In this document: in pieces, positions 20,988-36,245 of the stretch | Numbering within the stretch: position 1 is the first letter of the stretch | How the letters are laid out: every line of letters begins with the position of its first letter | Assembly: GCA_036475875.1 (NCBI GenBank) | Contig: JAZGAR010000073.1 | Span: forward strand, 1 to 51,417 | Source of the DNA: Thermoplasmata archaeon | Lineage (GTDB): Archaea > Thermoplasmatota > Thermoplasmata > GCA-020350865 | Length of the DNA stretch: 51,417 nt | Direction: 5' to 3' | The notes under the pieces: generated by a model | What the model was told of the DNA's origin: nothing | The model's database searches: none | Seen by the model: only the letters and a program-made list of their open reading frames with translations | Position numbers and translations under genes: made by a program

Positions 20988-22121
20988 TCACACAGCCTCC
21001 AGTTCCTCCTCCTTGAAAGTCGCAAGCGGCAGCTCCTCATCCAGACTTCTACCTGCCACATAGTCGAACAATTCTTGGACGTCCGCTCCAAGGGCATGGT
21101 AGATGGCCAAAAGAGGCAATTTACTGGGACAGGCGCTCTCACACTGGCCACAGCTCACACAGGATGTGATCATGTGGTTCATTCTCCCAATGTGATACAA
21201 GACAGTATCTAAAGGCATCCTGACAACGCCCCTCTTTTTGCTCTTGTCCATGTACTGTTTCGGTGAGGGTGAGAGCATCTCGGATTCGAAAAAGCATTCC
21301 TTACAGTAGCAGATCGGACAAACATTCATACAGTTGTGACATTTTATACAGCCAGCTAAAACTTTCATGTAACTGGTTATGTCCTTTACTTCATCCTTGA
21401 TCTCTTTGACCAGTTTTTCCCTATTCTCCTTTCTGGCCTTCGCGAGTTCCTCGAGGGCTCCCTCGCGGCCTTTATGTTCTTCCCTTTCAGCCAATTCAAG
21501 GCTCAGAGCACCCAGAAGTTCCTCGCCCTTGGGTGTGTTGGCCCTAAGCAGGATTTCTTTACCTAAATCCAGGCCGATGGTGCAAATCGAGATGTCTGCG
21601 GTATCGATCACTGGAAATTCGCAGATCATGCAGGCGGAACGTAAGTTCACACCCGAAAGCGCTGTCTTACCTTGGCCTCCCGCCTCTTCAAGAAGTTTCG
21701 ACGTTAAACCCTTTCCGGATTTTTTGGCAAGCTCAGTATATTCAGGAACAGGCAAGGTACCGAGACAATCCATTGATACCAAGGTGACATTATCCAAATT
21801 TATCTGGTGGAGTTTTGCAAGCTCGAACACAGCACGCAGTTCACACGGTCTGAACACCGCAACGATCCTATCCTCGGATGCATTGTCCGTAGTTTTTACA
21901 AGTATATCCGCAGAATTGGAGGGTAAAATAAAGGCAAATGGGTTGGCACTAATAACACTCTCCGGGTCCTTTACGAGAGTTTGGACTGTACTCACCCCAG
22001 AAGGTAAATCCTGAGGTACCACCAACGCGTCTGCTGCATTCTTTGCCAGAATACTCTTGAAGAAATCATTCAGGGTAAGCAACACATCTTTTTCCACGTT
22101 CAGTTTGGCAATCTTGGACAT
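20988..22121 (-). CDS. Fe-S oxidoreductase subunit, AsrA / sulfhydrogenase-beta / FrhB-like N-part plus 2x[4Fe-4S]
   Basis: The ORF track gives 20988..22145. ATG 22121 (MSKIAKLN) lies 7 nt after GGAGG. Has an RPCELRAVFELAK segment and a C-terminal CIKCHNCMNVCPICYC ... CVSCGQCESACP. Last gene of hdr operon 2. Confidence 0.6.
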   Translation of the reverse strand: MSKIAKLNVEKDVLLTLNDFFKSILAKNAADALVVPQDLPSGVSTVQTLVKDPESVISANPFAFILPSNSADILVKTTDNASEDRIVAVFRPCELRAVFELAKLHQINLDNVTLVSMDCLGTLPVPEYTELAKKSGKGLTSKLLEEAGGQGKTALSGVNLRSACMICEFPVIDTADISICTIGLDLGKEILLRANTPKGEELLGALSLELAEREEHKGREGALEELAKARKENREKLVKEIKDEVKDITSYMKVLAGCIKCHNCMNVCPICYCKECFFESEMLSPSPKQYMDKSKKRGVVRMPLDTVLYHIGRMNHMITSCVSCGQCESACPSKLPLLAIYHALGADVQELFDYVAGRSLDEELPLATFKEEELEAV

Positions 22122-22132
22122 ATTTTCGCCTC

Positions 22133-22600
22133 CTATATATCCCACTCCTTCTTGAACGGATTAGGTCCCATTGCTTTGGTCTCCTTGACCATCTCATTCA
22201 CGGTGTCTGCAAACTTCTGACCTTCACTGGCACTGATCCATTCCAAGCGCACCCGCCTCTCCTCGAACCCTAAATCTTCGAGCAATTTTTTCATGATAGA
22301 GACTCTTCTTCTCGCCTTGTAATTACCTGAAAGATAATGACAATCCCCAGGATGACAGCCAGCTACCAAAACCGAATCCGCACCTTCCAGCAGGGCTTTT
22401 ATCACGTAGACAGGATCAACCGCACCGGTGCACATGACTCTAATGGGTATGAAGTTCGGGGGATACTGCAGCCTGGAAACTCCAGCAAGATCGGCACCTG
22501 TGTAAGAACACCAGTTGCACAGAAAGCCTATTATCTTCGGCTCGAAATCCCCTTCTTGCCCGGTTGTTTTCGTTTGTTCAGCCTGACTTTCACCTTCCAT
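22133..22600 (-). CDS. mvhD: MvhD-like [2Fe-2S] subunit (stand-alone, no tail)
   Basis: The ORF track starts at GTG 22609. ATG 22600 (MEGESQ) lies 6 nt after GAGGTG. Motifs FLCNWCSYTGADLAG...RVMCTG...AGCHPGDCHY. Confidence 0.9.
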   Translation of the reverse strand: MEGESQAEQTKTTGQEGDFEPKIIGFLCNWCSYTGADLAGVSRLQYPPNFIPIRVMCTGAVDPVYVIKALLEGADSVLVAGCHPGDCHYLSGNYKARRRVSIMKKLLEDLGFEERRVRLEWISASEGQKFADTVNEMVKETKAMGPNPFKKEWDI

Positions 22601-22612
22601 ATTTCTCACCTC

Positions 22613-24328
22613 TTAACACACCTCATCTATTTGGGCCAGAATCTCCTTATTGGAAAAACCAACCAACTCAGGAACACCACCAGGACAGGCCATGGCACAA
22701 GCGCCGCAGCCCTGGCATGTTGCTAAATCCACATTGCTCACCAATTTGACCTCCTCGGTGATGTGGTTTTTAACGATTTTCATTGAAATAGCTTCATAGG
22801 GACATAGTCCCTCACATAGACTGCAACCCATACATCGTGATTCATCTATTACTGAATGCACGCTCCGCACTTTAAAGCCATTCTTAAGGATGTGGGCCAC
22901 CTCGAAGGCGGATTTTTTAGCATCCGAGATTGACTTCTTAATGCTTCTTGGCCCCTGGACGCAACCGGCAAGGGAAACTCCTCTTCTATCGATGATATCA
23001 TACCTGTCATTATAGTATCCCATGAAGCCATCCACATCCAATGGGAGGTGAACCATCTTGGCGAGTTTTATTGTACCTTTTGCCGCCTCTTGTCCAACAG
23101 CCAGGACAACCAAATCGGATTTAAACGCCATTATTTCGCCGAGTTCAATATGCTCTGTCCTCAAAATCAAGCTCCCTTCGTCCCTCAGAACCTCAGCTAC
23201 CCTGCCTCTAATGAAGTAAACGCCCTTTTTCTGGGCATCCAGATAGTCCTCCTCGAACCCATTATCCGGGCCGCGCAGGTCCATGTAATGGATATACACT
23301 TGTGTTTCTGGACTGAGGGATTTGATCCTTTTCGCCTGTCTGATCGCATAGGTACAGCAAACAAGAGAGCAATGGTGGTTGCCCTTGTTGTCGTCCCTTG
23401 AGCCCACACATTGGATGAAGTTAACGCGCTTGGGAACCTTACCGGTGGACGGAACCTTTATCGCTTTCTTTGCTAGCATCTTCTCCAATTGATAGAAATC
23501 GATGACATCATCGTATTCATATCTGTATTCCGGGATTTTGCTCGCATCGAAAAGGTCAGAGCCGGTGGCGATGATTATTACCCCGACGACCAGCTCTTTA
23601 AGCCCCTCCTTAGTGTTGATACTGACATGATAATCTCCTAAGGTACCAGTAATTTCTTCTACCTCCGATTCCAGCATGATATCCGCATTTATGCTCCCAG
23701 TCAGTTCATCCATATTGGGCAGGGAGAGGTCCTCCTCTTTTAACGCCTCAGGGTCCAGCTCATAGGCCCTTCCACCCAATTTGCTTTCCCTTTCCACCAA
23801 ATGAACATTAAGGCCCTTCTTGACCAGATCCAAGGCCGAAGTTATACCTGCCAAACCACCGCCGATGATCAAAACATCGTTACCGTTGGGCAAGAGAACG
23901 CTTTTATCCTCCACGGAGAATGCAGAAATAACCCTTGCAACACCACCTAGGACCAGGGCTTCGGCCTTATCGGTAGCGGCCCCTTCTTCCCGATGTATCC
24001 AATCACATTGCTCACGGATATTAACATTTTCAATGAGGTACTCGTTGATTCCAGCCTCTATGGCACCTTTTTTAAGGATGTCACCGTACGTCCTTGGAGT
24101 GCATCCCACAATAACCACTCTTTCCACACCGGCTGAGGAGATCTCATCCTTCAGGAACTGCTGTCCCTCTTTTGTGCAGAGTTTATCGTGTCTCTTGACA
24201 AATATCCAATCCGGGCGGTCTTTGAGTCTCTTCTCCAATTCATTCATATCGATGTTTTTTCCAATTGTGTTATCGCAGGTGCAGAGGACGACGCCCAGTT
24301 TCGGTTCCTTTGATTTAACACCCCTCAT
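22613..24328 (-). CDS. hdrA: HdrA-like protein (N-domain + FAD unit + C-terminal ferredoxin)
   Basis: LGVVLCTCDNTIGKNI...VGCTPRTY N-domain, GGGLAG, CVGSRD...CSLVCC, and C-terminal CMGCSLCEGLCP/CQGCGACAMACP. Lacks the DKTFPTNDC motif and the inserted ferredoxin. ATGA overlap with the upstream gene. Confidence 0.9.
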   Translation of the reverse strand: MRGVKSKEPKLGVVLCTCDNTIGKNIDMNELEKRLKDRPDWIFVKRHDKLCTKEGQQFLKDEISSAGVERVVIVGCTPRTYGDILKKGAIEAGINEYLIENVNIREQCDWIHREEGAATDKAEALVLGGVARVISAFSVEDKSVLLPNGNDVLIIGGGLAGITSALDLVKKGLNVHLVERESKLGGRAYELDPEALKEEDLSLPNMDELTGSINADIMLESEVEEITGTLGDYHVSINTKEGLKELVVGVIIIATGSDLFDASKIPEYRYEYDDVIDFYQLEKMLAKKAIKVPSTGKVPKRVNFIQCVGSRDDNKGNHHCSLVCCTYAIRQAKRIKSLSPETQVYIHYMDLRGPDNGFEEDYLDAQKKGVYFIRGRVAEVLRDEGSLILRTEHIELGEIMAFKSDLVVLAVGQEAAKGTIKLAKMVHLPLDVDGFMGYYNDRYDIIDRRGVSLAGCVQGPRSIKKSISDAKKSAFEVAHILKNGFKVRSVHSVIDESRCMGCSLCEGLCPYEAISMKIVKNHITEEVKLVSNVDLATCQGCGACAMACPGGVPELVGFSNKEILAQIDEVC

Positions 24329-25392
24329 TGAGCATCACACCCGTCGAGAAAGTCCATGACCTCTATTGCCGCTCTTTTGGCATCCTCCACAGAATATCTA
24401 ATCCCTTTTGGACCTAAGGCACAGCCTGCCACCGCGATACCTTTAGAACCGTTGTCAGCGATAAAACCATTGGACTGCAGCTCCAATCCCAGCATTTTAG
24501 CGATGTCCTTACAGCCTTTATGCGGCTTTTGTCCCACAACCAATACAACGAGATCACTTTGGATCTCCATCAGTTCATCCGAGTCGAGATTTTCCAATTT
24601 TAAAAGTAATTCACCGTTTGTTTTTTGAACTTCAGCTACCCTGCCTCTTAGAAATCTAACACCTTTCTCCTGGGCATCCTTGTAGAACTCCTCGAAACCC
24701 CGATAGGCAGCCCGAAGATCCATATAGTGAACGTAAACCTCAATATCAGGATATTTCGTTTTCAGCTCCTTTGCCTGTCCTATCGCATATGTGCAGCACA
24801 CCATGGAGCAGTGCTGATTGCCCTTGTTGGAATCCCTGCTCCCGACACATAATATGAAATTCACAACCTTCGGAATATTACCATCTGAAGGTCGCTTCAA
24901 TATGTTGCCCTGGGTTCGCAGCAAAACGATCATCTTTTCCAGTTCAAGGAATGTCATGACATCCTCATATTTGTCGTGACCGTATTCCAGAATTTTATCT
25001 GCATTGAAGGTGGTGGAGCCAGTTGTCACTATTATCGCATCCACGTCGAGACTCATTTTTCCTCCATTCGAGCTTAAATCAACATGAAAATTACCAGGTT
25101 TGCCGGAGATATTCTCCACCTGGGTTTCAAGCATAATCTCAAGATTCTCGTTTAAGAACAGTTCCCCGAACTTGGGCGTGAAGATACACTCTCTGCAGTA
25201 ATCCATGCAGCAGCCGTCAGCCTTGCATTCGTGAGTCATATACGTCCTGCTGAGCTTGTAGGCCCTTCCCCCAAGCTCGGATTCTCTTTCAATAAGATAT
25301 GTATGGACTCCGTTATTAGCAAGGTCTAATGAGGCCTGCATTCCTGCAACGCCGCCTCCAATCACGATCGCTTTGTTTTTACCTTCCATCAT
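24325..25392 (-). CDS. hdrA: minimal HdrA-like flavoprotein (355 aa, no ferredoxin domains)
   Basis: GGGVAG and CVGSRD...CSMVCC. The DKTFPTNDCxMC position is replaced by YMTHECKADGCCMDYCRECIF. ATGA overlaps at both ends. Confidence 0.8.
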   Translation of the reverse strand: MMEGKNKAIVIGGGVAGMQASLDLANNGVHTYLIERESELGGRAYKLSRTYMTHECKADGCCMDYCRECIFTPKFGELFLNENLEIMLETQVENISGKPGNFHVDLSSNGGKMSLDVDAIIVTTGSTTFNADKILEYGHDKYEDVMTFLELEKMIVLLRTQGNILKRPSDGNIPKVVNFILCVGSRDSNKGNQHCSMVCCTYAIGQAKELKTKYPDIEVYVHYMDLRAAYRGFEEFYKDAQEKGVRFLRGRVAEVQKTNGELLLKLENLDSDELMEIQSDLVVLVVGQKPHKGCKDIAKMLGLELQSNGFIADNGSKGIAVAGCALGPKGIRYSVEDAKRAAIEVMDFLDGCDAQ

Positions 25393-28300
25393 GCAGCCTC
25401 CAAGGCTTTATCGACCATGGCCATCAGCTGACTCGGTTCGAATTGTCGTAAATATGGTACGTTGGATGGGCATATGCTCGAGCATGCACCACAGCCCATG
25501 CACAGAACTTCGTTCACCTCTGCAACACCGGTTTCCTCATTGACCTTTATCGCCTCATATGGACAATTTACTTGACACAATCCACAACCTGTACATCTCT
25601 CTTCATCCACAACTGCGGCCACACCTTCTGTCAATAACTGCTCTTTGGAGAGTATGGTCAAGGCTCTCGCTGCTGTTCCGCTTGCCTGGGATATGGCCTC
25701 ATCCATGAACTTTGGAGAGTGGCACCCACCGCACAAGAATACACCGGCTACGGCAAATTCCACCGGTTTGATCTTCAAGTGAGATTCCATGAAGAAATTG
25801 TCCTTTGTCAGGGGCACCTTGAGCACCTTGGCAAGTTGCTCGTTCTCTGGAGAGGGAAGATATGAAGAGCTTAAAACCACATAATCAGGTCGAATAACGA
25901 TATGTTTCTTGATATTGGGATTGTAAACCGTAACCTTTAGGTTCTCATTCTCTTTTTCCACCACAGGCTTTCGTTCCTTCTCATACCTGATGAACACCAC
26001 CCCTTTCGATCTTGCCTCTCTGTAAAACTTCTCTTTAAGACCGTAGGTTCGTACATCCCTGTATAGTACATATACATTAGCATTCGGTTTCAATTCCTTT
26101 ATCTTAAGAGCGTTCTTTACTGCCATTGAGCAGCATATCCTGCTACAATATTCCCTTCCTTCCTCTCTCGATCCTGTACATTGAATCATTACAACGTTGT
26201 TCTCGGAGTGGCCCTTCTCGTGAAGTTTTTTCTCGAACTCTAATTGGGTCATCACTCTGGGGTCCTCACCGTACATATATAAGCCCTTCGGCTTGAGCTC
26301 AGTTGCACCTGTGGCAACGATGATCGTGCCAACATTCAAATCCTTCTTTTCACCACCATGAGATATTGTAGCTGTGAAGTTTCCAATGTAACCCCCCACA
26401 TTCTGCACAGACGAGCTGGGGAACACCTCTATGTTGGGATTGCTATCTATCCGCTCCAAAAATGCCTTCAATTCTATTTGCGGGTCGTCATCTGTTAATA
26501 GGTAATAGACATTATTCAAATTACCTCCAAGCTTCTTTTCTTTTTCGACGATATAGGCCTTGAAACCTTTGTCTGCCAGGTCCAAAGCCGCTGTCATACC
26601 TGCAATCCCTCCGCCGATGATCAGGGCTGAATTTGTACAATCCACAGGGGACTTGTGAACCACCTTATTTCTCATCACCTTCTCAACCGCCATTGCCACC
26701 AGGTGTTTGGCTTTTTCAGTGGCCTTTTCAGGATCGTTTTTGTGCACCCAGGAGCAATGTTCCCTCGTACTTGTCAAATCGAAGAGATACTCGTTCAAAC
26801 CCATCTCCTTAATGGTTTTTTGGAATAAAGGTTCGTGGGTGCGAGGAGTGCAAGAGGCCACAACAACCCTGTTCAGATTATGCTCTTTGATGGCGTCTTT
26901 TATCTTGTCTTGGGAGGCCTGTGAGCAGATATAGAGGTCCTCATCGGCATGAACCACATTCGGTAATGTTTTGGAGAATTCCACGAGCCCAGGCACGTCC
27001 ACAACCGAGCCGATGTTTACACCACAGTGACAGGAGAAAACCCCTATTCTGGGCTCCTCCCCTATCTCTATTTCCTGGGCCCCTTCCTCCTTTCGACCTT
27101 CATACATTGGAACAAAATCCATGGCTTTCGATGCGGCTCCCGAAGCTTGAGCAACTGAGTCCGGTATGTCCTTCGGGGATTCGACGCTCCCACCAACATA
27201 GATTCCAGACCTGGAAGTCTCTTGGGGTGTGAAATATCCTGTATCGCAAAATCCATATTCGTCCAAATCCACACCCAACATTTCGGCAAGTTCTTTCCAA
27301 TCCTTGTGTGGCTCCATTGCCATGGCTAAAATCACGAGGTCAAAGATCTCCTCCTTTAACTCCCAGTTCTCATCTCTATAGATGATCTTCAGGTTCTTGG
27401 TTTCTGGGATTTCTTCTATGTGGGGAATCCTGCATCTCACATAATTCACACCGTATTCGTCCTTGGCCTTGTTATAATACTCCTCCCCACCCTTGCCGAA
27501 GGTTCGTAGGTCCATATAGAAAATTGTGGTATCGATGTCAGGTTCATGGTCCTTGGCGATGATCGCCTCCTTTGTAGCGTATCTGCAACACACGGCAGAA
27601 CAGTACGGTTTGCCTTTCTGCTCATCCCTTGAGCCGACACATTGTATCCAAGCGATTCTCTTAGGGGTCGTGCGGTCTTTTGGACGAAGAACCTTACCAG
27701 CGAAAGGGCCGGAAGCGCTGAGAACGCGCTCGAATTCAAGTGAAGTTAGAACATTATCGTACCTGCCGTAACCGTATTCCGACTTGATCTTTGGGTCTAC
27801 CGGGGTAAAACCAGATGAAACGATTATAGCACCCACGTCGATCTCTTTAATCTCGTCCTCTTGGTCGTATTCGATCGCTTTAGCCTCACAGAACTCGCTG
27901 CATGTCTTACAATTTCCAGTTTGATAATATATACATTTATCCTTATCAATTACCGGTATCAGCGGTATTGCCTGGGGGTATGGAATATAAACTGGCTTTC
28001 TCTGTGTCAATTCTCTATCGAATTCCGAAAGTATGGGAATGGGTTTATTACCACTGATACGCTCCACCTTTTTCTGTGTGAATCTCGATGTAGGGCATAT
28101 GAAGGCACAGGCTCCACAGGTCATACAAACATCGGATAACTCCAGGTATGGTGTACCAAGCTCCCGATCTATCCCGCGACCCTGAAAATTGATTGCCTCC
28201 CTTCCCATTCGTTCACACATTCTTACACAGAGGCCGCAGAGAATGCAGTTGTCATCCTTTTTCTTGAACCGCAGTTCGCCCACGCCGTATTCTTTGGCTA

Positions 28301-28613
28301 GATCGATTAATACCTCTTCTTCTGGGCTCCTGGCCAGTAATAGTTCAATGGTCATCTTCCGGCTCTTTTGCACATCCTCGGAATCGGTCAGTACTCTCAT
28401 TCCATCCTTCACTGGTAATGTACAAGCAGTAACCAGTAAAGACCACCCGTCCTTCAATATTTCAACTATGCATAGACGACAGGCCCCGTAGTTGGGAAGG
28501 GCTTTTTGATGGCATAAGGTGGGTATTTTGATTTTATTATCATTTGCAACCTCTAAAACCGTCTTTCCCTTTTCGGTCTCGAAGATTGTACCATTGATTT
28601 CTATTTTAACCAT
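25389..28613 (-). CDS. NuoG/HydA-N-terminal-like [2Fe-2S]/[4Fe-4S] module fused to an N-terminally truncated HdrA unit plus a complete HdrA unit (1074 aa)
   Basis: N-terminus: MVKIEINGT...CHQKALPNYGACRLCIVEI, CILCGLCVRMC, CMTCGACAFICP. It then enters HdrA at PVYIPYPQAIPLIPVID with no preceding GGGxxG, followed by CVGSRD...CSAVCC. Next come the N-domain IGVFSCHCGVNIGS...ASCTPRTHE, GGGIAG, CTGSRE...CSRICC, and CTGCGLCQVNCP/CMGCGACSSICP. Confidence 0.88.
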   Translation of the reverse strand: MVKIEINGTIFETEKGKTVLEVANDNKIKIPTLCHQKALPNYGACRLCIVEILKDGWSLLVTACTLPVKDGMRVLTDSEDVQKSRKMTIELLLARSPEEEVLIDLAKEYGVGELRFKKKDDNCILCGLCVRMCERMGREAINFQGRGIDRELGTPYLELSDVCMTCGACAFICPTSRFTQKKVERISGNKPIPILSEFDRELTQRKPVYIPYPQAIPLIPVIDKDKCIYYQTGNCKTCSEFCEAKAIEYDQEDEIKEIDVGAIIVSSGFTPVDPKIKSEYGYGRYDNVLTSLEFERVLSASGPFAGKVLRPKDRTTPKRIAWIQCVGSRDEQKGKPYCSAVCCRYATKEAIIAKDHEPDIDTTIFYMDLRTFGKGGEEYYNKAKDEYGVNYVRCRIPHIEEIPETKNLKIIYRDENWELKEEIFDLVILAMAMEPHKDWKELAEMLGVDLDEYGFCDTGYFTPQETSRSGIYVGGSVESPKDIPDSVAQASGAASKAMDFVPMYEGRKEEGAQEIEIGEEPRIGVFSCHCGVNIGSVVDVPGLVEFSKTLPNVVHADEDLYICSQASQDKIKDAIKEHNLNRVVVASCTPRTHEPLFQKTIKEMGLNEYLFDLTSTREHCSWVHKNDPEKATEKAKHLVAMAVEKVMRNKVVHKSPVDCTNSALIIGGGIAGMTAALDLADKGFKAYIVEKEKKLGGNLNNVYYLLTDDDPQIELKAFLERIDSNPNIEVFPSSSVQNVGGYIGNFTATISHGGEKKDLNVGTIIVATGATELKPKGLYMYGEDPRVMTQLEFEKKLHEKGHSENNVVMIQCTGSREEGREYCSRICCSMAVKNALKIKELKPNANVYVLYRDVRTYGLKEKFYREARSKGVVFIRYEKERKPVVEKENENLKVTVYNPNIKKHIVIRPDYVVLSSSYLPSPENEQLAKVLKVPLTKDNFFMESHLKIKPVEFAVAGVFLCGGCHSPKFMDEAISQASGTAARALTILSKEQLLTEGVAAVVDEERCTGCGLCQVNCPYEAIKVNEETGVAEVNEVLCMGCGACSSICPSNVPYLRQFEPSQLMAMVDKALEAA

Positions 28614-28615
28614 TT

Positions 28616-30484
28616 TCAGCCCCCTCCTGTTTTAACATCGACGGCATTGAACTTGCATACCTCAATGCATATTCCGCAGGTGGTGCATATATCATAATCT
28701 ATGATGTGTGGCTGCTTCTTTTCCCCTGATATGGCTTCAACCGGACACTTTTTGAAACAAAGATGGCATCCATTACATTTTTCAGGATCTATCTCATAGG
28801 ATATGAGGGCCTTACAAACCTTGGCTGGACACGCCTTTTCCAGCACATGAGCCTTGTACTCGTCTTCAAAATATTTCATAGTCGTTATGACCGGGTTGGG
28901 GGCAGTTTTTCCAAGACCGCAAAGCGATGTGCTCATTATATATTCACTCAGTTCTTCAAGCAGTGCAAGAGAGTTCTCATCGCCCTTGCCCTCAACGATG
29001 TCATCCAATATTTCCAGCATTCGAGCGGTGCCCTCTCTGCATGAAGTGCATTTACCACAGGATTCGTCGAGATTGAAAGCAGTGAAATATCTGGCAACAT
29101 CCACCATGCATGTATCCTCGTCCATCACGATCATCCCGCCCGAACCCATCATGGACCCTACCCGCTTCAATTCGTCAAAATCAATGGGGATGTCGAGTAG
29201 GGGTTCCGGAATGCAACCACCGGAAGGACCCCCTGTTTGTACAGCTTTAAAGCGCCTATCATTGGGAATACCGCCACCGATATCAAATACAATTTCTCTG
29301 ATGGCCATACCCATGGGTATCTCAACCAGACCAGTATTTCTTACTTTTCCAACGAGAGAGAATATTTTGGTGCCTTTGCTTTTTTCTGTCCCGATATTGG
29401 CAAACCACTCAGCTCCTTTGTTGAAGATCAATGGAACATTTGCCCATGTTTCAACATTGTTTATCACTGTTGGGTACCCCCATAGGCCGCTTTCAGTGGC
29501 ATGTATGTGCTTTGCCTTCGGCTCACCTACCTTCCCTTCGATGGACTGGATCAGGGCGGATGATTCTCCGCATACGAATGCTCCTCCACCCTTGTAAACC
29601 AAGATGTCAAAATCAAAACCAGATCCCAGTATATTCTTCCCCAAAAGACCAAGTTCTCTTGCCTGATTTAAAGCGGTTGAAAACACATCGACAGCTATGG
29701 GATATTCGGATCGTACATATATGTAACCATAATTGGCACCCACTGCATAGGCACCGATGATCATACCTTCTATAACACTGTGGGGGTTGCCTTCCAACAA
29801 ATTCCTATCCATATAGGCCCCAGGATCGCCTTCATCGGCATTGCATATGATGTATCTTTTCTCTGCTGCGACGTTTTTAGTGGATTCCCATTTTCGTCCG
29901 GTGGGAAACCCTCCACCTCCCCTACCTCTTAGACCAGATCGCTTTACCACATCGACGATCTCGTCGGGATTCATGGAAAACAGCGACTTTCCCAATGCGC
30001 TGTAGCCACCTATCCGGATATAATCCTGGATTTCCTTCTGATCTATCTCAATATTGTCTATGAGCAAATTCCTCAATTGCTTTTCATAAAACGGTAATTC
30101 GTTTTCATATGTGACCTTATTTCCTGATACAGGATCAACATAAAGAAGCCGTTTTACAGGCTTTCCTGATTCCAAGGTTTCAGACATAATCTCCTCAACA
30201 TCATCTGGTACCACGTTTTTGTAAAGTATGCCAGGAAATCCTTTAAGTCGAATTACGACGATGGGCTCAATTTCGCAAAGACCCAGGCAGCCTGATACCC
30301 TCACTTTGGACTTATCAGTCATTCCCCTCTTTGCAAGGCTATCCGAAAAAGCATCTATTACACCCTGACTACCCTGTGCCTCCCCGCAGGTTCCCGATGC
30401 GATAATAACTAACGGTTTTTCCGGTTCCGCATTTAACTTCTCCCTCAAATCGTCCAGGGACTGTGTATTTGTCAACCTCTCCAT
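28616..30484 (-). CDS. NuoF/HydB-like NAD(H)- and FMN-binding subunit with N-terminal thioredoxin-like domain and C-terminal 2x[4Fe-4S]
   Basis: GLRGRGGGGFPTGRKW (FMN/NADH site), CNADEGDPGAY, ESCGKCTSCREG (N3-type cluster), and C-terminal CNGCHLCFKKCP/CTTCGICIEVC. Confidence 0.9.
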   Translation of the reverse strand: MERLTNTQSLDDLREKLNAEPEKPLVIIASGTCGEAQGSQGVIDAFSDSLAKRGMTDKSKVRVSGCLGLCEIEPIVVIRLKGFPGILYKNVVPDDVEEIMSETLESGKPVKRLLYVDPVSGNKVTYENELPFYEKQLRNLLIDNIEIDQKEIQDYIRIGGYSALGKSLFSMNPDEIVDVVKRSGLRGRGGGGFPTGRKWESTKNVAAEKRYIICNADEGDPGAYMDRNLLEGNPHSVIEGMIIGAYAVGANYGYIYVRSEYPIAVDVFSTALNQARELGLLGKNILGSGFDFDILVYKGGGAFVCGESSALIQSIEGKVGEPKAKHIHATESGLWGYPTVINNVETWANVPLIFNKGAEWFANIGTEKSKGTKIFSLVGKVRNTGLVEIPMGMAIREIVFDIGGGIPNDRRFKAVQTGGPSGGCIPEPLLDIPIDFDELKRVGSMMGSGGMIVMDEDTCMVDVARYFTAFNLDESCGKCTSCREGTARMLEILDDIVEGKGDENSLALLEELSEYIMSTSLCGLGKTAPNPVITTMKYFEDEYKAHVLEKACPAKVCKALISYEIDPEKCNGCHLCFKKCPVEAISGEKKQPHIIDYDICTTCGICIEVCKFNAVDVKTGGG

Positions 30485-31393
30485 TTACGCATCCCCCAAT
30501 GAAGAGAGGATCTTATCCACCTCGTCAAAGTTCAAATTCCCGTGAAACTCCTCATTTATCATCATAACTGGACCGATGGCGCAGGTACCAAGACAGTTCA
30601 CGGTTTCAAGCGAAAGCAGCCCTTCCTCCGCCTCGGATACCCTTTCCCGAATTCTATCGACGACCCTCCTTGCGCCTCTGACATGGCAGGCAGTGCCCAG
30701 GCAGACCTTTATGTGGAACTTCCCTCTCAACTCGAGACTGAATGCTTTATAGAAAGTGGCCAATCTGTAAATGTAACTCAGAGGGATATCGAGCTTAAAT
30801 GTTAGATATCCCAATACATCCTTTGGAAGATACCTATAATGATCATTCACATCCAACATAATTTGAATCAAGGGACCATCAAGATGGGAATATCTTTCAA
30901 CTAGAGAATCGAGGTATTCCCTGTCTCGAACCTTTGGAGCCTCCTTGGGCTTCTCAGGTATCTGCGGTTGTAGGTTTATTGGACAATTCTCTATGCAAAC
31001 TCCGCATCCTGTACATTTGGATTCATCTATTGATCGGGCTCTCTTTTTCAAGGTGACCTTAAAATTGCCTGCCTCCCCCTCAACAGCCACCAGTTCAGAA
31101 TGTGTAAGGAGTTCTATGTTTGAATGTCCACCAACACCCACGAGTTTAGGTGATAGGGTACACATGGCGCAATCATTCGTTGGAAAGGTTTTGTCAAGCT
31201 GAGACATTCTCCCCCCCAACGACGGAGTTTTTTCGAGTAGATACACCTTCCTTCCCGAATCCGCCATATCCAATGAAGCTTGAATACCGCTTATCCCCCC
31301 GCCTATAACGAGAACACCTTTCTGATTCACATCCCCCGAAGATTCTTCATGATCGTGTTCATGAGTTTCGGTTGTTGTATCCACATCATCCAT
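30485..31393 (-). CDS. HdrA N-terminal FAD-binding fragment fused to a NuoE-like [2Fe-2S] domain (302 aa)
   Basis: GVLVIGGGISGIQASLD...DKTFPTNDCAMCTLSPKLV...GNFKVTL...CTGCGVCIENCP, then a NuoE-type segment (YRLATFYKAFSL...KVCLGTACHVRGA...VNCLGTCAIGPVMMI). Confidence 0.88.
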   Translation of the reverse strand: MDDVDTTTETHEHDHEESSGDVNQKGVLVIGGGISGIQASLDMADSGRKVYLLEKTPSLGGRMSQLDKTFPTNDCAMCTLSPKLVGVGGHSNIELLTHSELVAVEGEAGNFKVTLKKRARSIDESKCTGCGVCIENCPINLQPQIPEKPKEAPKVRDREYLDSLVERYSHLDGPLIQIMLDVNDHYRYLPKDVLGYLTFKLDIPLSYIYRLATFYKAFSLELRGKFHIKVCLGTACHVRGARRVVDRIRERVSEAEEGLLSLETVNCLGTCAIGPVMMINEEFHGNLNFDEVDKILSSLGDA

Positions 31394-31411
31394 GTAACCA
31401 GTCCTTTTGTC

Positions 31412-32284
31412 CTATTTGCCCCCATTTGATTCTAAAAACAACTTTCCGATCTTCTTTCTCATCCCCAATTCCTTGGGGCCGTAACCCATAGCAAGCCCCA
31501 GAATTTGTGGTGTGAATACCACTGGCATTTTGAAATCGATATTGATGTTAGGATCCTTTTGATACTCGCTGTACATGACCATACAAAACGGACAGTGCAC
31601 GGTCATAGCATCAGCCTTGGCCTCATGTACATGTATCAGTTTGTCCCTGACCATTTTTACCGATGTTTCCTCGTTGACAGCGAGTATAGCACCTCCGCAG
31701 CACTGTTTCATGTTCTCGTATTTTATTGAGATTGCGCCGGTAAGATCCACGAGGTCGTCGACAGTATGCGGAATTATGGGATCCTCGAAATCATCGAAGA
31801 TCTCAGGAGGTTTGAGATAATGGCAGCCGTAATGGGGGGCAATTCGTAATGGATTCAACTTGGTGGTGAAGGTCTCTTTTATTTTATCTAGGCCAACCTC
31901 CTCATATATGAATCGAAGGAAATGCCTAACTTCCAATTTCCCTTGAAATTCCTTACCAATGGCATTTTTTAAGATCTTGTTGATATGTTTACGCTCTTTT
32001 TCATCTTCTTTCAGTAATTTATTCACTTTGGTCAATGTGCCAGTGCATGAGTTGCAAACGCTTATAACATAATCCACGCCCATCTCCTCCGCAGCAACGA
32101 GGTTCTGGGCCGCAAGAGCGAGAAAGGTGGTGTGATCCTTTGGCCCTGCAGGATAACCGCAGCACACGAAATCATCCGAGTCGAGAAGCTCTATGCCCAA
32201 CTTTTCAGCCACCCGTCTTACTGCTGCATCGTACTCAAAGACCCTAAGTGCAACATTGCATCCAAGAAAATATGCAGCTTTCAT
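31412..32284 (-). CDS. hdrB: heterodisulfide reductase subunit B-like, copy 2
   Basis: MKAAYFLGC...DFVCCGYP and KQCCGGA CCG motifs. 290 aa. TAATG overlap with hdrC copy 2. Confidence 0.9.
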   Translation of the reverse strand: MKAAYFLGCNVALRVFEYDAAVRRVAEKLGIELLDSDDFVCCGYPAGPKDHTTFLALAAQNLVAAEEMGVDYVISVCNSCTGTLTKVNKLLKEDEKERKHINKILKNAIGKEFQGKLEVRHFLRFIYEEVGLDKIKETFTTKLNPLRIAPHYGCHYLKPPEIFDDFEDPIIPHTVDDLVDLTGAISIKYENMKQCCGGAILAVNEETSVKMVRDKLIHVHEAKADAMTVHCPFCMVMYSEYQKDPNINIDFKMPVVFTPQILGLAMGYGPKELGMRKKIGKLFLESNGGK

Positions 32285-32829
32285 TACTTATCTTCACTCC
32301 CCTCTTCCAATATCCCAGTTTCTTTTATGATCTTCCTTATCCGTTCCGGGTTTTCCTTTATCGGAGGACATTTCAATTTCTCCCTTTGCTGGTTCTCGAA
32401 TTCCGACAATTCGGTGGTTCTTCCGGTCTTATTCATTGCCTCGACGCCCATTTGATAGGAAAAATGCAGGTGGCCCTCTCTGGCCGCGATGTTCTGGATC
32501 GCAGCTATGACCTTCGTGGTCTGTACATTCTGCGGACATCTCACATAACAGCTATAACACGTGGAGCAGAGCCAAATCGCATCCGAGGACAGTACCTCCG
32601 ATCTTAGGCCCAATAGTGACATCCAGATTATTCTTCGTGGATCATATTCAGGGTTCTTTGCAGCAACAGGACACACCGATACACATGTCCCGCATTGAAA
32701 ACAGTAGAGAATGTTCTCTCCACCCGGCTCCTTTGCTATCTCGAACTTGAAGTTCGGGTCGAGCTCGGCCAATTCGATATTTTCAACTTTCTTGTTTGTT
32801 TTCTCATTTGTCGTTTCTGTATCGGCCAT
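32284..32829 (-). CDS. hdrC: heterodisulfide reductase subunit C-like, copy 2
   Basis: CFQCGTCVSVCP and CSTCYSCYVRCP. 181 aa. Confidence 0.9.
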   Translation of the reverse strand: MADTETTNEKTNKKVENIELAELDPNFKFEIAKEPGGENILYCFQCGTCVSVCPVAAKNPEYDPRRIIWMSLLGLRSEVLSSDAIWLCSTCYSCYVRCPQNVQTTKVIAAIQNIAAREGHLHFSYQMGVEAMNKTGRTTELSEFENQQREKLKCPPIKENPERIRKIIKETGILEEGSEDK

Positions 32830-32907
32830 TAATGGTCAACTCCGAGCCTTGTTTGGATACATACCAGCAGTAGATTATCCCCACGGCGCACGGGAATGTT
32901 TTTTTGA

Positions 32908-32985
32908 CTATTAAACATTTCGGATTTATAGCGATATTGTTTATCTTGATGACGATTGTCGGATACTGCTTATATACATTTCGTT
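32908..32985 (-). promoter_or_regulatory. two tandem BRE/TATA-like elements upstream of hdr operon 2
   Basis: The minus strand reads ACGAAATGTATATAAG (32985..32970) and CCGAAATGTTTAATAG (32923..32908). They lie about 140 and 80 nt upstream of hdrC ATG 32829. Confidence 0.4.
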
Positions 32986-33072
32986 GTCACTGAGGGAGGT
33001 AAATAAGGCTTGATAAAAACGAAAATGCACCCTAGAGGGAATCAATATACCCTTATCCTGGGGATTACATTT

Positions 33073-33093
33073 CCAAAAAACCCATAAAATAAA
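33073..33093 (-). terminator. oligo-T terminator after the ligase gene
   Basis: The minus strand directly after stop 33094 reads TTTATTTTATGGGTTTTTTGG. Confidence 0.4.
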
Positions 33094-34635
33094 CTAAAAG
33101 CACACCTTCCTCATCACCTTCTCGATCAGATCAGTCCTAAGCTCGGTCTTGTTCTCGAACTCACCTACCAAAGCTTTCTTTTCCTTTCCAAGTTCATAGC
33201 AGGTTTGATCGTCAATATCCACCAACACACCTGGAAGGCCTATTCGCTCGAAATCCTCAAGATGCTTGACATAGAAAGCCTCGCAGCAACTGCCCACAAA
33301 TGCCTTCGCTCCATTATCCTTATATTTCAAAAGGGTCTCCAATAGGTCATCAAAATCCAGTATGGTCACCACCTCTATTCCGTTCTTTTCTGCGAATTCA
33401 TAGCAGTCACCAACGTTACAATCCTCGCATTTTATGCACTCCTTTTTATGCCGGTATTCGCACCCAGGTAATTTGGCGCAGTAAGGAAGAAGGAGAACCG
33501 AACATTTTGGCATGTCCTTCAAGGAACTGTTTACAGTGAATATGCGATTCGCTTCATGCGATTGTATTCCAAGTTCGTGGTAATCCATTTTCTCAAGGGC
33601 TTTGAACAGCACCTTTACGAAATCCTTTGGCTCGACACCTGGTATCTGGGGTTTTTTCTCGGCAAAAAAATCAAGGATTAGGTTTTCAATTTGGAGATTA
33701 TCCGCTGGTGTATCCTTCATTTTCGCCTCCAAATCTAGAATGGTCCTCTTTGGGTAGGCAAAAAAATCACCTGTGATCAGAACACTGTGTATGCGGTTCG
33801 ATTTTGCATCCGCAACCAGAGATGCCCTGATGAGCCCCCCAGGAGCTTTGTGCACTGCCCTCAATTCCTGCCTGTTCTTCAAGGGCCTGCGAAGACCAAA
33901 AACCCAACCCTTCGATTTAAAGTAAGGAAGTCTTTTTTTAAGAAGTTCATTCTCTAATTTGGTAAGTTTCCCCTCCTCAAATGTTACCTCAAATACTTCT
34001 TCGAATCCTTCTTTCAGCGCATTTTTCATCTCAACAAGTTCCGGGACATACCCGAGTTCCCATGATAGGCAAGTTACCCTTTCCTTGACCGATTCGATCT
34101 CCTTGTCCTTAAGCTTCTCTATTGGAATACGGAGAGCCCTGAGCATGGTGTCAACATCGAAGTCCGTGAGCAATGTACCTTGAAAAAGAAATGTCCCGCC
34201 CTCTAACGCACCTCCAGTCCCAGAGATCTTCCGCCCCTCAACCTCAATATCGTTCTTAGGCCTGAAAGCCGCATTCACTCCCAACTTTTTCAACCCAATG
34301 ATCGCACCCTCGCATAACTTTTCATAGAGCTCCTCCACCCTATTCGGGATCTTCGGATGTTCCTTGGAGGCGAAAATCTCCCACCCCAACTGCGGTTTGT
34401 CGAAGTAGAGGGCTCCACCGCCAGTGATACGCCTGTTGATGTCTATTCCTCTTTCTTTGCAAAACCGCACCCTTATTTCCTGCTCAACGCTTTGATGGTA
34501 TCCCACAAGAACGCTGTTTGGAGAAAATTGAAGAAAGCGAAGTGTGTTCGGTATATTGCCCTCACTTTTCGCCTTGAGTATGCACTCGTCTAGAGCCATG
34601 TTCTCTGCCGCAGAGCGAACACCTGTGTCCACCAA
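33094..34635 (-). CDS. lplA: lipoate-protein ligase (LplA N- and C-domains) fused to a Cys-rich DUF116-like C-terminal domain
   Basis: NMALDECIL, RRITGGGALYFD, GRKISGTGG (adenylate-binding Lys) and LITGDFF (LplA C-domain). The last ~150 aa reads CSVLLLPYCAKLPGCEY...CIKCEDCNVGDC...AFVGSCCEAF...DDQTC. The track start is TTG 34635; see the finding on a possible upstream ATC start at 34653. Confidence 0.85.
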   Translation of the reverse strand: MVDTGVRSAAENMALDECILKAKSEGNIPNTLRFLQFSPNSVLVGYHQSVEQEIRVRFCKERGIDINRRITGGGALYFDKPQLGWEIFASKEHPKIPNRVEELYEKLCEGAIIGLKKLGVNAAFRPKNDIEVEGRKISGTGGALEGGTFLFQGTLLTDFDVDTMLRALRIPIEKLKDKEIESVKERVTCLSWELGYVPELVEMKNALKEGFEEVFEVTFEEGKLTKLENELLKKRLPYFKSKGWVFGLRRPLKNRQELRAVHKAPGGLIRASLVADAKSNRIHSVLITGDFFAYPKRTILDLEAKMKDTPADNLQIENLILDFFAEKKPQIPGVEPKDFVKVLFKALEKMDYHELGIQSHEANRIFTVNSSLKDMPKCSVLLLPYCAKLPGCEYRHKKECIKCEDCNVGDCYEFAEKNGIEVVTILDFDDLLETLLKYKDNGAKAFVGSCCEAFYVKHLEDFERIGLPGVLVDIDDQTCYELGKEKKALVGEFENKTELRTDLIEKVMRKVCF

Positions 34636-34750
34636 TCTCCATTTTTCTATGATTTCACCGTCCTTTTTATGACAACGCAGGGGTAGAATCCCCCTCAGTT
34701 ACGACGAAAGTGAAGGAAGAACACGAAAAGGTGAAAATCATCTCCCCAAA

Positions 34751-35788
34751 TCATGATGAGTAATCCAAGAGCTGCTCCTTTATCATCTCGATATCGTTCT
34801 CCTCGGGCAAAAATGGAAAGTTCCTTATGGGACGGGAGGGCCTCTCGTTGCCGTAAGGGCGGTTGCATGCCACCTTTTTGTCTCTACCTGGGCAACCAGA
34901 AGTCATGAATGCCTCCCCCATCTCTATAATTTCTTTAACATCCATACCAAAATCTATTATCTGGCCTTTTTTGTTAAGTCTCATGTTTCTGTTGGAGCCC
35001 AGGCCCTCATTGATGATGTATCTTGCCAGTTGTATTCTTCTGTATGAACCATAAGTGGGTTGCTTATTCCCTTGTATTTTGCTCCCTTGCTCCGGGTAGA
35101 AGGAAAACAGATGGGTTTTTGCACCCATATCCTCAGCCCTCTGAATCGTCTTTATAAATTCCTTCTCGGTCTCACCAAGACCCACGATGAGATGTACTCC
35201 CACATTGCCTGGCTCAAATATTTCTGTGGACCATTTCACAACATCCCAGTAATGATCCCATTTGTGCGGACCGTTGACACCTTTGCCCCTGTGTTCGTCA
35301 AATAACTCGGATGTGACGGCATCGATTGCGATGCCCACCATGTCTGCACCTGAGTCCTTGATTTTTTCGATGGTCTCTTTGTTCCTTATCATAGTCGGTG
35401 AGATCAAACCGGAAATGAGCAGATCTGTTTCATCCTTGAACTTGGTCATGACGGTGCACATGTCTTCCAATGCTCTCGGATGCGTTATCATGGATACACA
35501 TACCCTCTGAAGATGCTTTCCGTTTTCATTTGTCCTTTTAATAACCTCATCCAGGGGATAAGAAGGCCAGTCTACCCTGATAAAGGTCCTATCCTCCGGT
35601 TCCACAACCCTTGCCTTTGACAAACCGCAATAGCTGCATCTCGCCTTACAACCATCCTCATAGGTCAAGAGCAGGTTCAAGGCATTCAATCTTGCACCCC
35701 TGTAAAATCTCCCGGGCAGGATTTTCATGGTCATAGCGGCAGCGGTACTGGTTTGAACGTACTCAGGACTGTTCTTTGTCATATTCAT
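34751..35788 (-). CDS. radical SAM enzyme, BioB/LipS-like (candidate lipoyl synthase component)
   Basis: CKARCSYCGL (CX3CX2C) near the N-terminus of a 345-aa TIM-barrel-sized protein. Its start overlaps the end of the GcvH-like gene by 26 nt, and it sits between that carrier gene and the ligase gene. Confidence 0.75.
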   Translation of the reverse strand: MNMTKNSPEYVQTSTAAAMTMKILPGRFYRGARLNALNLLLTYEDGCKARCSYCGLSKARVVEPEDRTFIRVDWPSYPLDEVIKRTNENGKHLQRVCVSMITHPRALEDMCTVMTKFKDETDLLISGLISPTMIRNKETIEKIKDSGADMVGIAIDAVTSELFDEHRGKGVNGPHKWDHYWDVVKWSTEIFEPGNVGVHLIVGLGETEKEFIKTIQRAEDMGAKTHLFSFYPEQGSKIQGNKQPTYGSYRRIQLARYIINEGLGSNRNMRLNKKGQIIDFGMDVKEIIEMGEAFMTSGCPGRDKKVACNRPYGNERPSRPIRNFPFLPEENDIEMIKEQLLDYSS

Positions 35789-36245
35789 CCAACCTTTTTA
35801 GCTCCTCCTCAATCCATTTTCTAATGCTCTCTTCCCCATCGAGAATATCATCCGATTGAAGATCCTTTTCGATATCAGTGGGTTTGATTTCCACAATCCA
35901 GGCATTGTAAGGGTCTTTGTTGATTCTGATGGGGTCATTCACCACTTCCTCGTTTATATTGAGAACCTCCCCATCTAAAGGGGAATAGAACTTGCTCACG
36001 AACTTCGCTGATTCGAAGCTCCCGATGGCTTCGCCTTGCCTGAATTCTTTGTTGTCTATTGTGAGATAGCTTAAGTAACCTGCGTTCTCGGTTAGAAATG
36101 AGTCCATTCCGATCTTGACTTTGCCACCATCCTCTTTCAGCCAGATATGGTTTCCGCTCTTCTTGTAGTATCTTCTGTCCAAGGGGAATTTCAGGTTTTC
36201 TATCTCTATCACTGCAATCCCTCCAACATCATTCAAGGCGATCAT
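35763..36245 (-). CDS. GcvH-like lipoyl-carrier protein 3 (canonical ES-A-K motif)
   Basis: NHIWLKEDGGKVKIGMDSF...GSFESAKFVSKFYSPLDGEVLNINEEV..DP..INKDPYNAW. 160 aa. Confidence 0.85.
   Translation of the reverse strand: MIALNDVGGIAVIEIENLKFPLDRRYYKKSGNHIWLKEDGGKVKIGMDSFLTENAGYLSYLTIDNKEFRQGEAIGSFESAKFVSKFYSPLDGEVLNINEEVVNDPIRINKDPYNAWIVEIKPTDIEKDLQSDDILDGEESIRKWIEEELKRLDEYDKEQS

Follow-up and report, generated by a model that had tools for sequence, protein, structure and literature searches.

The 51,417-nucleotide stretch analyzed here (contig JAZGAR010000073.1 of a Thermoplasmata archaeon; the window) carries a cassette of genes for a predicted lipoyl carrier and its maturation, followed on the same strand by a large operon for a heterodisulfide reductase (Hdr). 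Coding is dense throughout, with a GC content of about 44% (from the listing of open reading frames [ORFs]) and no intergenic gap longer than 480 bp, and every sizeable ORF was scanned against Pfam and NCBIfam. All twelve minus-strand ORFs that an earlier note on this DNA had assigned to cassette and operon lie where it placed them and carry the domains it gave them (ORF listing, Pfam and NCBIfam). The two extra GCV_H genes and two extra LplA paralogues that it reported elsewhere in the window are likewise real in Pfam (Table 1).

Table 1. Genes and features of the window considered in this analysis
Feature	Coordinates	Strand	Basis and remarks
Divergent H-type lipoyl carrier (H-like)	35763..36245	-	GCV_H 85 bits; hairpin GSFESAKFVSKFYSP, including the lipoyl Lys
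LipS2-like radical SAM protein	34751..35788	-	Radical_SAM; CKARCSYC (CxxxCxxC) motif
LplA::DUF116 ligase	33094..34635	-	LplA-B_cat, Lip_prot_lig_C (LplB-like) and DUF116 (Pfam, NCBIfam)
Second ligase paralogue, LplA_318	40021..40977	-	LplA-B_cat
Third LplA paralogue, N-terminus cut by window edge	1..255	-	LplA-B_cat; 64% identical to LplA_318
Gap with TATA-like boxes tgtatataagc and cgctataaatcc	32830..33093	-	264 bp; read from the sequence
HdrC-like 2x[4Fe-4S] subunit	32284..32829	-	Fer4_8; TIGR03290 112 bits vs cutoff 160
HdrB, two CCG domains (two non-cubane cluster sites)	31412..32284	-	TIGR03288 246 vs cutoff 345
HdrA fragment (residues ~133-258; FAD Rossmann start and one Fer4) fused to NuoE/BfuC-like [2Fe-2S] domain	30485..31393	-	2Fe-2S_thioredx 123 bits
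NuoF/BfuB-like NAD(H)/FMN subunit	28616..30484	-	Complex1_51K, NADH_4Fe-4S; N-terminal [2Fe-2S], C-terminal 2x[4Fe-4S]
NuoG/BfuA-like Fer2_4 N-terminus fused to complete HdrA, 1074 aa	25389..28613	-	131 bits to 9MQX_A; 556 bits to 5ODC_A
Minimal HdrA, flavoprotein core without ferredoxin domains, 355 aa	24325..25392	-	219 bits to methanogen HdrA core
HdrA-type Fe-S flavoprotein, C-terminal 2x[4Fe-4S]	22613..24328	-	Pfam and PDB comparison
MvhD/FlpD [2Fe-2S] subunit	22133..22609	-	FlpD 184 bits
FrhB-like Fe-S protein	20988..22145	-	FrhB_FdhB_C and Fer4 (2x[4Fe-4S])
GKW-subfamily GcvH paralogue, divergent from hdrC2	16045..16476	+	GCV_H 129 bits; hairpin GTISSGKWTGKFYSP
Second GKW-subfamily GcvH paralogue	18032..18460	+	GCV_H 143 bits
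Second hdr operon	3286..15716	-	hdrC2, hdrB2, HdrA::MvhD (1357 aa), HdrA (1003 aa), MvhD, HdrA (1015 aa)
GlcD-like FAD dehydrogenase and HdrD/TfrB-like Fer4_8+CCG subunit	592..3239	+	NCBIfam/Pfam

The carrier gene of the cassette encodes a divergent relative of the glycine-cleavage H-protein, here called H-like, which belongs to a tight clade of 99 proteins; the hairpin FESAKFVS(K/R) is found in 98 of them, and the lipoyl Lys is kept in 98 as well. The window protein shares 29% identity with E. coli GcvH and reaches neither of the GcvH NCBIfam cutoffs (67.7 against 115.85 for TIGR00527), its hairpin reading E-S-A-K-F-V-S-K against the canonical E-S-V-K-A-(A/S)-S-D. Alignments to H-proteins in the PDB put the lipoyl Lys of the H-type proteins in the correct place. 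Cys residues are absent from the window protein and have a median of 0 in the family, with a Cys near the C terminus in 34 of 94 members. Homologues occur in metagenome-assembled genomes (MAGs) of Thermoplasmata/Thermoplasmatota, and farther ones in Promethearchaeota (Asgard) and Hydrothermarchaeota. The gene overlaps that of the neighboring radical SAM protein by 26 nt, and its true start is probably GTG 36212 rather than ATG 36245, given a GGAGG 7 nt upstream and orthologues that begin MIEIENL. Some 100 bp upstream of the start there is a TTTAAATA box (start region 36210-36245, minus strand).

The radical SAM protein has LipS2 (NF053743) as its best NCBIfam match, at 229 bits against a cutoff of 270, and is the putative sulfur-inserting half of an archaeal two-protein lipoyl synthase. 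LipS1 and LipS2, together with a ligase (and LipT), form a described lipoyl-assembly pathway (Tanabe et al. 2023, PMC10332631). Domain scans detected no LipS1 among the window ORFs, and LipT is also absent locally. Both occur in related loci (L numbers below). A second radical SAM gene sits within the cassette at L013, L014, L022 and L023, and three scanned copies (L013, L022, L023) pass the LipS1 NCBIfam cutoff with 233 to 248 bits against 230. A LipS1 homologue was found by tblastn in L061, and a LipT (geranylgeranyl-reductase-like) gene follows the cassette in L005, L018, L044 and L062. The carrier, ligase and radical SAM logic proposed in the earlier note is thus real and predicted to be of the LipS1/LipS2 type. 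We also considered a "LipS2-only" route to an 8-mercapto-octanoyl, CoB-like arm, which is weakened by the genuine LipS1 in orthologous cassettes of relatives.

When the window proteins were compared by tblastn with 23 loci that hold H-like homologues, a cassette core emerged in the order LplA_318, H-like, LipS2-like, LplA::DUF116. The LipS2-like gene always adjoins H-like in more than 20 loci, the two ligases flank the synthase in nearly all, and LplA_318 stands directly upstream of H-like in essentially all related loci. At the window and at L082, LplA_318 is separated from H-like by a 3.7-kb insert (36443-39888; 2520-5925 in L082) of sensor- or regulator-like genes (PHP, DRTGG, CBS+HATPase_c_2 and HATPase), an insert that L001, L006 and L007 lack. 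The fusion of ligase and DUF116 is kept in 16 long loci. Judged by these matches, the cassette encodes a predicted lipoyl-assembly pathway of the LipS1/LipS2 type, which is conserved in MAGs of Thermoplasmatota, Asgard and Hydrothermarchaeota. What is new relative to the described pathway is the putative H-type carrier embedded in the cassette and the DUF116 domain fused to the ligase. A paper on the distribution of LipS1/LipS2 notes the genes in Asgard and Thermoplasmatota and reports no Hdr link there.

The DUF116 domain (33097-33558, minus strand) has eight invariant Cys in the pattern CX5CX7CX2CX2C...CC...C, and its AlphaFold2 model is an alpha/beta fold with a pLDDT of 89. It had no sequence match in the PDB and no fold match (best E 0.017, TM < 0.47), and we found no literature on its function. 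The CC motif had suggested a cryptic CCG domain, a candidate rejected at a profile-profile probability of 1%. Standalone DUF116 proteins occur in Moorella, Desulfosarcinaceae, Chloroflexi and Bathyarchaeia.

The operon downstream runs hdrC-hdrB-(HdrA fragment::NuoE)-NuoF-(NuoG::HdrA)-HdrA-HdrA-MvhD-FrhB. Its HdrB (HdrB1) matches methanogen HdrB structures with 208 bits and has its motif Cys at C9/C41C42/C77/C80 and C154/C195C196/C231/C234. This double pattern, CX(31-39)CCX(35-36)CXXC, is invariant in HdrB1, in the HdrB2 of the second hdr operon and in their orthologues. The NuoF-like subunit matches the B subunits of bifurcating HydABC, NiFe-Bfu and NfnABC over its full length with 700 to 758 bits (758 to 7T2R_B). 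The hallmarks of a Bfu module are all present, namely, a BfuB with N-terminal [2Fe-2S] and C-terminal 2x[4Fe-4S] sites, a NuoE-like BfuC and a BfuA with a NuoG-like N terminus. The minimal HdrA has a thioredoxin-reductase-like core and matches sHdrA (6TJR) end to end with 150 bits. The FrhB-like protein is a possible F420 or flavin entry module; its gene closes the operon in L082 too, and FrhB-type genes are scattered through the hdr arrays of L024 and L025. Sequence matches to the PDB bear out the claim that this Hdr is very different from that of sulfur oxidizers, being of the methanogen type and equipped with MvhD and a NuoEF (Bfu) NAD(H) module.

The other two carriers of the window form a second subfamily, named GKW for a hairpin that reads SSGKWTGK in place of the canonical ESVKAASD; the lipoyl Lys is present in all GKW GcvHs. 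The proteins at 16045-16476 and 18032-18460 are 37% and 42.5% identical to E. coli GcvH, score 108.4 and 123.5 against TIGR00527 (cutoff 115.85) and both pass the looser subfamily model NF002270. The GKW proteins form their own clade with 100% bootstrap in a tree whose references were canonical GcvHs only (E. coli, Thermus, pea and 2EDG). An M28 metallopeptidase gene (16544-17785, minus strand) lies between the two GKW genes. It is recorded at L031 as well, and in the Asgard locus L005 another (7519-8832) stands right before LplA_318; the enzyme may be a lipoyl-lysine amidase or a salvage enzyme. The nearby second hdr operon encodes an HdrB2 with 55% identity to HdrB1, and its MvhD/FlpD (6284-7174, minus strand) has a C-terminal extension of ~130 aa with a weak ArsR-type HTH_5 match (E 6e-4). 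Beyond it lies a GlcD-HdrD pair, whose HdrD-like subunit has TfrB of thiol:fumarate reductase as its best family match (NCBIfam).

No GCV_T, GDC-P, E2 or Lpd was found in the 51-kb window, either by Pfam scans or by tblastn with E. coli GcvT/P/AceF/Lpd, in agreement with the earlier note, and homologues of GcvT, GcvP, E2 and Lpd numbered 0 among 77 related loci that sum to 850 kb. TusA, DsrE and rhodanese were absent from the sizeable ORFs of the window (Pfam), again as first claimed. No window ORF carries an AOR-family domain, and no genes for CoM/CoB biosynthesis or mcr were found in the window.

The association of carriers with Hdr recurs in relatives. Locus L082, which comes from a different metagenome and whose HdrB shows 90% identity, has every gene of this architecture in the same order, insert included, so that the arrangement is not an assembly accident and is conserved at about the genus level. 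The cassette is followed by hdrC-hdrB-hdrA in L001, L002, L006, L007 and L082. Two unannotated genes of ~230 and ~215 aa intervene in the first four (13293-14658 in L007, 13278-14653 in L001); they have no Pfam match and are missing from the window and L082. In the same four loci a GltD-like Fer4_20 domain serves as predicted NAD(P)H module in place of NuoEF. A single HdrA of 1490 to 1560 aa follows hdrB in several relatives (L001, 16312-20444; L006; L007; L016, 12554-17026; L027, 5714-10405), and those of L001 and L027 carry the GltD-like Fer4_20 NAD(P)H module, with no NuoEF/Bfu module. By domain content, then, the putative electron-input module is swapped between close lineages. At L016 and L050, hdrC-hdrB-hdrA comes straight after LplA_318 and H-like in the same orientation, and LipS2 is missing. 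As far as gene order shows, Hdr directly after the cassette is a feature of the closest relatives only.

Other configurations reach further. A metagenome scan for the GKW subfamily yielded 52 loci, in 12 of which the GKW gene stands directly before GlcD-HdrD (then UbiA-UbiA-LplA_318-Hlike), as it does in many genome loci, and in 14 of which it stands directly before LplA_318. The GKW gene is the immediate neighbor of hdrC-hdrB in L031 and L057, and in L051 it stands ~2 kb away from an hdr cluster; L083 and L026 each add one further example of a GKW-type/CCG neighborhood. In the Asgard locus L005, two HdrD-like genes and GlcD flank the cassette, with Rnf adjacent. Counting a CCG-type gene within 10 kb as a neighbor, 20 of the 35 long loci (at least 12 kb) have one, against an expectation of a few percent per random 20-kb archaeal stretch that is our rough estimate and was not computed. 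The most widespread CCG neighbor of H-type genes is GlcD-HdrD, not HdrABC. Gene order in these loci indicates that the association of H-type with CCG genes is frequent, takes several forms and crosses phyla, and that it is not obligatory.

Among known systems, sHdr works with lipoate-binding proteins (LbpA) matured by dedicated ligases and LipS1/LipS2, a partnership established for sulfur oxidizers only (PMC6067878, PMC10332631, PMC11094781). Its core sets are shdrC1B1AHC2B2 (type I) and shdrC1B1AHB3-etfAB-emo (type II), always accompanied by TusA, DsrE-type and rhodanese sulfur transferases (PMC11094781), and LbpA carries two conserved Cys, one N-terminal and one C-terminal, from which some archaeal LbpAs are exempt (PMC6067878). 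As in the sHdr-LbpA clusters of Hyphomicrobium, Aquifex and Sulfolobales, the CCG enzymes described here are clustered with one to three GcvH-like proteins, LplA ligases and a LipS2-like gene, with LipS1 and LipT in relatives, and they share the small sHdrA-like flavoprotein, the strictly conserved lipoyl Lys and the ligase and LipS genes at or near the cluster. Unlike those clusters, the window has no sHdr core set, sHdrH, EtfAB/EMO or sulfur transferases in our scans, its carriers lack the two LbpA Cys, its ligase bears the DUF116 fusion, its multi-cluster HdrA units are of methanogen type and come with MvhD and a NuoEFG/Bfu NAD(H)-ferredoxin module, and its host is an anaerobic Thermoplasmata archaeon known from a sediment MAG. 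The gene set, the sulfur transferases and the LbpA Cys led us to reject its assignment to sHdr type I or II.

The two-motif HdrB, HdrC, HdrA (556 bits) and MvhD, all hardware of flavin-based bifurcation, resemble methanogen MvhADG-HdrABC and Fdh-HdrABC (5ODC, 7BKB, 8RVU). In contrast to these, a Bfu-type NADH module and an FrhB-like subunit replace the hydrogenase or formate dehydrogenase, HdrA is split and multiplied into four pieces, and HdrB and HdrC do not reach the equivalog cutoffs for CoB-CoM reductase subunits. Bam-Bfu (BamBCDEFGHI; Schut 2022, PMC9304861) is the sole complex type described so far in which BfuABC is joined to HdrA-like, MvhD-like and CCG-type subunits. The window shares that combination of a NuoEFG-like BfuABC module with HdrA-like, MvhD-like and CCG-type subunits, but it has no BamB tungsten (AOR-type) subunit, its HdrB and HdrC are canonical and its context is lipoyl carriers, not aromatic degradation. 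FlxABCD-HdrABC of sulfate reducers is an NADH-linked soluble HdrABC proposed to reduce the protein-bound disulfide of DsrC. Here the NADH module is Bfu rather than Flx, and the proposed partner would be a lipoyl-lysine arm rather than the two-Cys DsrC. In thiol:fumarate reductase TfrAB and in D-lactate dehydrogenases with HdrD-like subunits, a CCG/Fe-S subunit couples thiol/disulfide chemistry to a flavoprotein dehydrogenase. GlcD-HdrD shares the TfrAB layout and differs in its GlcD (FAD_binding_4) flavoprotein and in its proposed lipoyl-protein thiol partner. We found no paper that connects GcvH-like proteins with HdrABC or HdrD in anaerobic archaea, and the view that the system is undescribed holds to that extent.

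We propose that the lipoylated H-proteins are the protein-bound dithiol/disulfide partners of HdrB and HdrD, a reading to which we give a probability of roughly 45%. In this scheme, a ligase (LplA::DUF116 and/or LplA_318) would load octanoate or lipoate onto the H-like Lys, and the LipS2-like enzyme, with a LipS1 encoded elsewhere, would insert the sulfurs. HdrB and HdrC would be the disulfide-handling end of a soluble multi-flavin Hdr complex, wired by three HdrA-type flavoproteins and MvhD to the Bfu-type NuoE/F/G-like NAD(H)/ferredoxin module, with the FrhB-like subunit as a further electron entry point. H-like and the two GKW GcvHs would act as swinging-arm carriers that dock on the non-cubane [4Fe-4S] clusters of HdrB or HdrD, where the dithiolane would be reduced, or the dithiol oxidized, with electrons passing through HdrC, the HdrA flavins and MvhD. 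The carriers would thereby take the role of CoM-S-S-CoB in methanogens and of DsrC in sulfate reducers. More tentative is the wider idea that lipoylated H-type proteins, products of a dedicated LipS1/S2 cassette, are the long-sought heterodisulfide of non-methanogenic archaea, shuttling between GlcD-HdrD and a bifurcating or confurcating HdrABC in Thermoplasmatota and possibly in Asgard.

Textbook potentials are about -290 mV for lipoyl, about -320 mV for NAD and about -450 to -500 mV for ferredoxin. They favor confurcation, in which dihydrolipoyl-H and reduced ferredoxin would together reduce 2 NAD+ in an exergonic reaction. We speculate that GlcD-HdrD could serve as a 2-hydroxyacid:lipoyl-H oxidoreductase, for a sum of lactate + reduced ferredoxin + 2 NAD+ to pyruvate + ferredoxin + 2 NADH. 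This net reaction is that of the known confurcating lactate dehydrogenase-EtfAB complex.

Several points weigh against lipoyl proteins as partners of Hdr. By the same potentials, the oxidation of 2 NADH by ferredoxin and lipoyl is endergonic, lipoyl being too low for NADH-dependent ferredoxin reduction. The thermodynamic caveat of the earlier note stands. With NADH as donor, lipoyl at about -290 mV cannot be the high-potential acceptor of a bifurcation. The proposed link between carrier and Hdr is drawn from gene neighborhood alone, and these neighborhoods are phylogenetically related, so that the counts, taken from loci of shared ancestry, are not independent. Between cassette and hdrC lies a promoter-like gap; the TATA-like boxes of the BRE/TATA claim are present in it, and it is probably the hdr operon's own promoter. 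Calling the operon "headed by" the cassette consequently overstated its unity, given this gap and the two extra genes that intervene in relatives. Conservation of the linkage was found in L001, L002, L006, L007, L016, L050 and L082, but the cassette is a self-contained biosynthetic unit, and 15 of the 35 long loci have no CCG gene. The converse survey, from HdrB1 homologues, was similarly divided: that of L026 (58% identity) has a divergent GCV_H immediately upstream, but those of L024, L025 and L027 (76%, 60% and 46%) lie in hdr arrays without GCV_H. Amplification of hdr genes in this lineage makes chance adjacency likelier; the 21-kb array of L025 holds seven CCG genes, three FrhB-like genes, several giant HdrA genes and FlpD genes. 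The GKW GcvHs, with one passing the equivalog cutoff and both the subfamily cutoff, might be ordinary H-proteins, should another part of the genome encode gcvPT. Finally, in L003 (11477-13215) and L084 (11684-13499) a cysteine desulfurase-TusA-ferredoxin set adjoins the cassette on the opposite strand and could plausibly provide lipoyl synthase with sulfur and electrons; the cassette of this lineage of Thermoplasmatota lacks the DUF116 ligase.

The main alternative, although we consider it rather unlikely, is that a housekeeping lipoylation cassette lies beside unrelated, amplified hdr genes. H-like would then be an assembly or relay scaffold, ordinary glycine-cleavage or 2-oxoacid enzymes encoded elsewhere would receive the lipoyl group, and Hdr would act on another disulfide. 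A precedent is the GcvH-centered LipM-LipA-LipL relay of Bacillus subtilis, in which the H-protein is the obligate cofactor scaffold (PMC6067878). Several LplA-family enzymes occur in both systems, but the window differs in its LipS1/S2-type synthase, its two distinct non-canonical H families and the lack of an E2 acceptor in the window and the 77 loci, and both local ligases resemble complete two-domain ligases, not LipL or LipM. Besides the promoter-like gap, the hdr amplification and the GCV_H-free hdrB contexts already given, a housekeeping role would fit a cassette that is kept as a unit across phyla with or without Hdr, that places H-like always between ligase and LipS2, and that is accompanied by LipS1, LipT and in some loci cysteine desulfurase, TusA and ferredoxin. 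It fits poorly with three H-type and three ligase paralogues within 40 kb when neither the window nor the 850 kb of related loci encodes a lipoyl-dependent enzyme, with H-type genes beside CCG enzymes in three configurations and more than one phylum, with the non-canonical hairpins of both H-type families, and with L016 and L050, where LplA and H-like directly precede hdrCBA and no synthase is present.

A link to C2 and glycine metabolism appears improbable. GlcD and the CCG protein would be a GlcDF-type glycolate (or D-lactate) oxidase, the GKW proteins would be true glycine-cleavage H-proteins, adjacency would follow the sequence glycolate to glyoxylate to glycine to cleavage, and Hdr would be a bystander. 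The architecture of a GlcD-like protein with a Fer4_8+CCG subunit does equal that of E. coli GlcD/GlcF, with weak NCBIfam matches to both; GcvH-GlcD-HdrD is the commonest arrangement; and the resemblance of the GKW proteins to E. coli GcvH (37 to 42% identity, with one equivalog hit) points the same way. However, the scores lie far below the cutoffs (202 against 568 for GlcD, 85 against 333 for GlcF), TfrB is the better match for the CCG subunit, and the lipoyl-Lys hairpin of the GKW proteins has been rebuilt. No locus contains a gcvT, gcvP, lpd or aminotransferase partner, and the gene near the cluster in L018 is a lactate racemase rather than a glyoxylate enzyme.

As a special case of lipoyl proteins acting as Hdr partners, Hdr-Bfu might use NADH to keep lipoyl-H reduced for OsmC/Ohr-type peroxidases or thiol-dependent repair, which we regard as very unlikely. 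OsmC/Ohr enzymes are lipoyl-dependent peroxidases, and electron flow from NADH to lipoyl is near equilibrium and would need no bifurcation. An OsmC-like gene is found in the window (49552-50049, minus strand) and is kept in the block around LplA_318 in L001 (3683-4132) and L006, and another (10432-10857) adjoins hdrCBA in L027; the protein could be a consumer of dihydrolipoyl-H. Against this, 13 kb separate the OsmC gene of the window from the cassette, there is neither a peroxiredoxin nor an AhpD-type relay, and a multi-flavin complex on the scale of 12 subunits with Bfu and MvhD is far more elaborate than peroxide defense needs.

We give least credence to a true sHdr-LbpA sulfur system or its reversal, in which the lipoyl arm would bring sulfane sulfur (persulfide) to HdrB for sulfite formation or sulfur reduction: the gene logic of hdr, one to three lbpA, ligase and LipS1/S2 is the same (PMC6067878), the 355-aa HdrA has an sHdrA-like architecture, L007 has two tandem hdrCB pairs, 34 of 94 H-like proteins have a Cys close to the C terminus and TusA lies near the cassette in L003 and L084, but the 51 kb contain neither shdr core set, no sHdrH and no TusA, DsrE or rhodanese, the H-like carrier of the window is devoid of Cys, with a family median of 0, and the HdrA units, accompanied by MvhD and the Bfu module, are of methanogen type.

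HdrABC is highly expressed, and HdrABC/HdrD genes are abundant, in non-methanogenic archaea such as basal Thermoplasmata (10.1101/2020.03.09.984617), and also in Asgard, and genome papers repeatedly state that the disulfide substrate of their Hdr is unidentified (PMC11291895). A lipoyl-protein partner, if true, would be a concrete candidate for that substrate, open to expression and assay. The partnership of Hdr with lipoate-binding proteins, known only from aerobic sulfur oxidizers, would then reach the anaerobic bifurcating-type Hdr. The wider idea, if true, would turn lipoate, hitherto a swinging arm within multienzyme complexes, into a redox currency of general use in anaerobic energy metabolism. 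We consider the proposal well founded and testable, but comparative genomics is its sole basis. A lipoyl-protein partner would also define two new H-protein subfamilies by their hairpins, FESAKFVSK and SSGKWTGK. Both are annotated automatically as "glycine cleavage system H," and glycine-cleavage predictions are therefore inflated in these MAGs. DUF116, in addition, stands out as a Cys-rich domain associated with lipoylation, and no solved structure is analogous to its predicted fold.

Genes for multihaem c-type cytochromes (~490 aa, NapC/NirT-like) lie beside the GKW GcvH/GlcD-HdrD block and the hdr arrays (L018, 1537-3006; L050, 6108-7583; L053, 6056-9757; L024, 3819-9065; L025, 1-531). One of these loci also has a cytochrome b, giant cytochromes of 1748 to 1786 aa occur and UbiA prenyltransferases recur alongside; these recurrent genes hint at a quinone- or cytochrome-linked outlet. 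Elsewhere in the window, a small MazE/AbrB-like gene (46730-47011, minus strand) sits between methyltransferase and UbiA genes, and a fragment of an IS200-like Y1 transposase lies at the window edge (51146-51406, minus strand).

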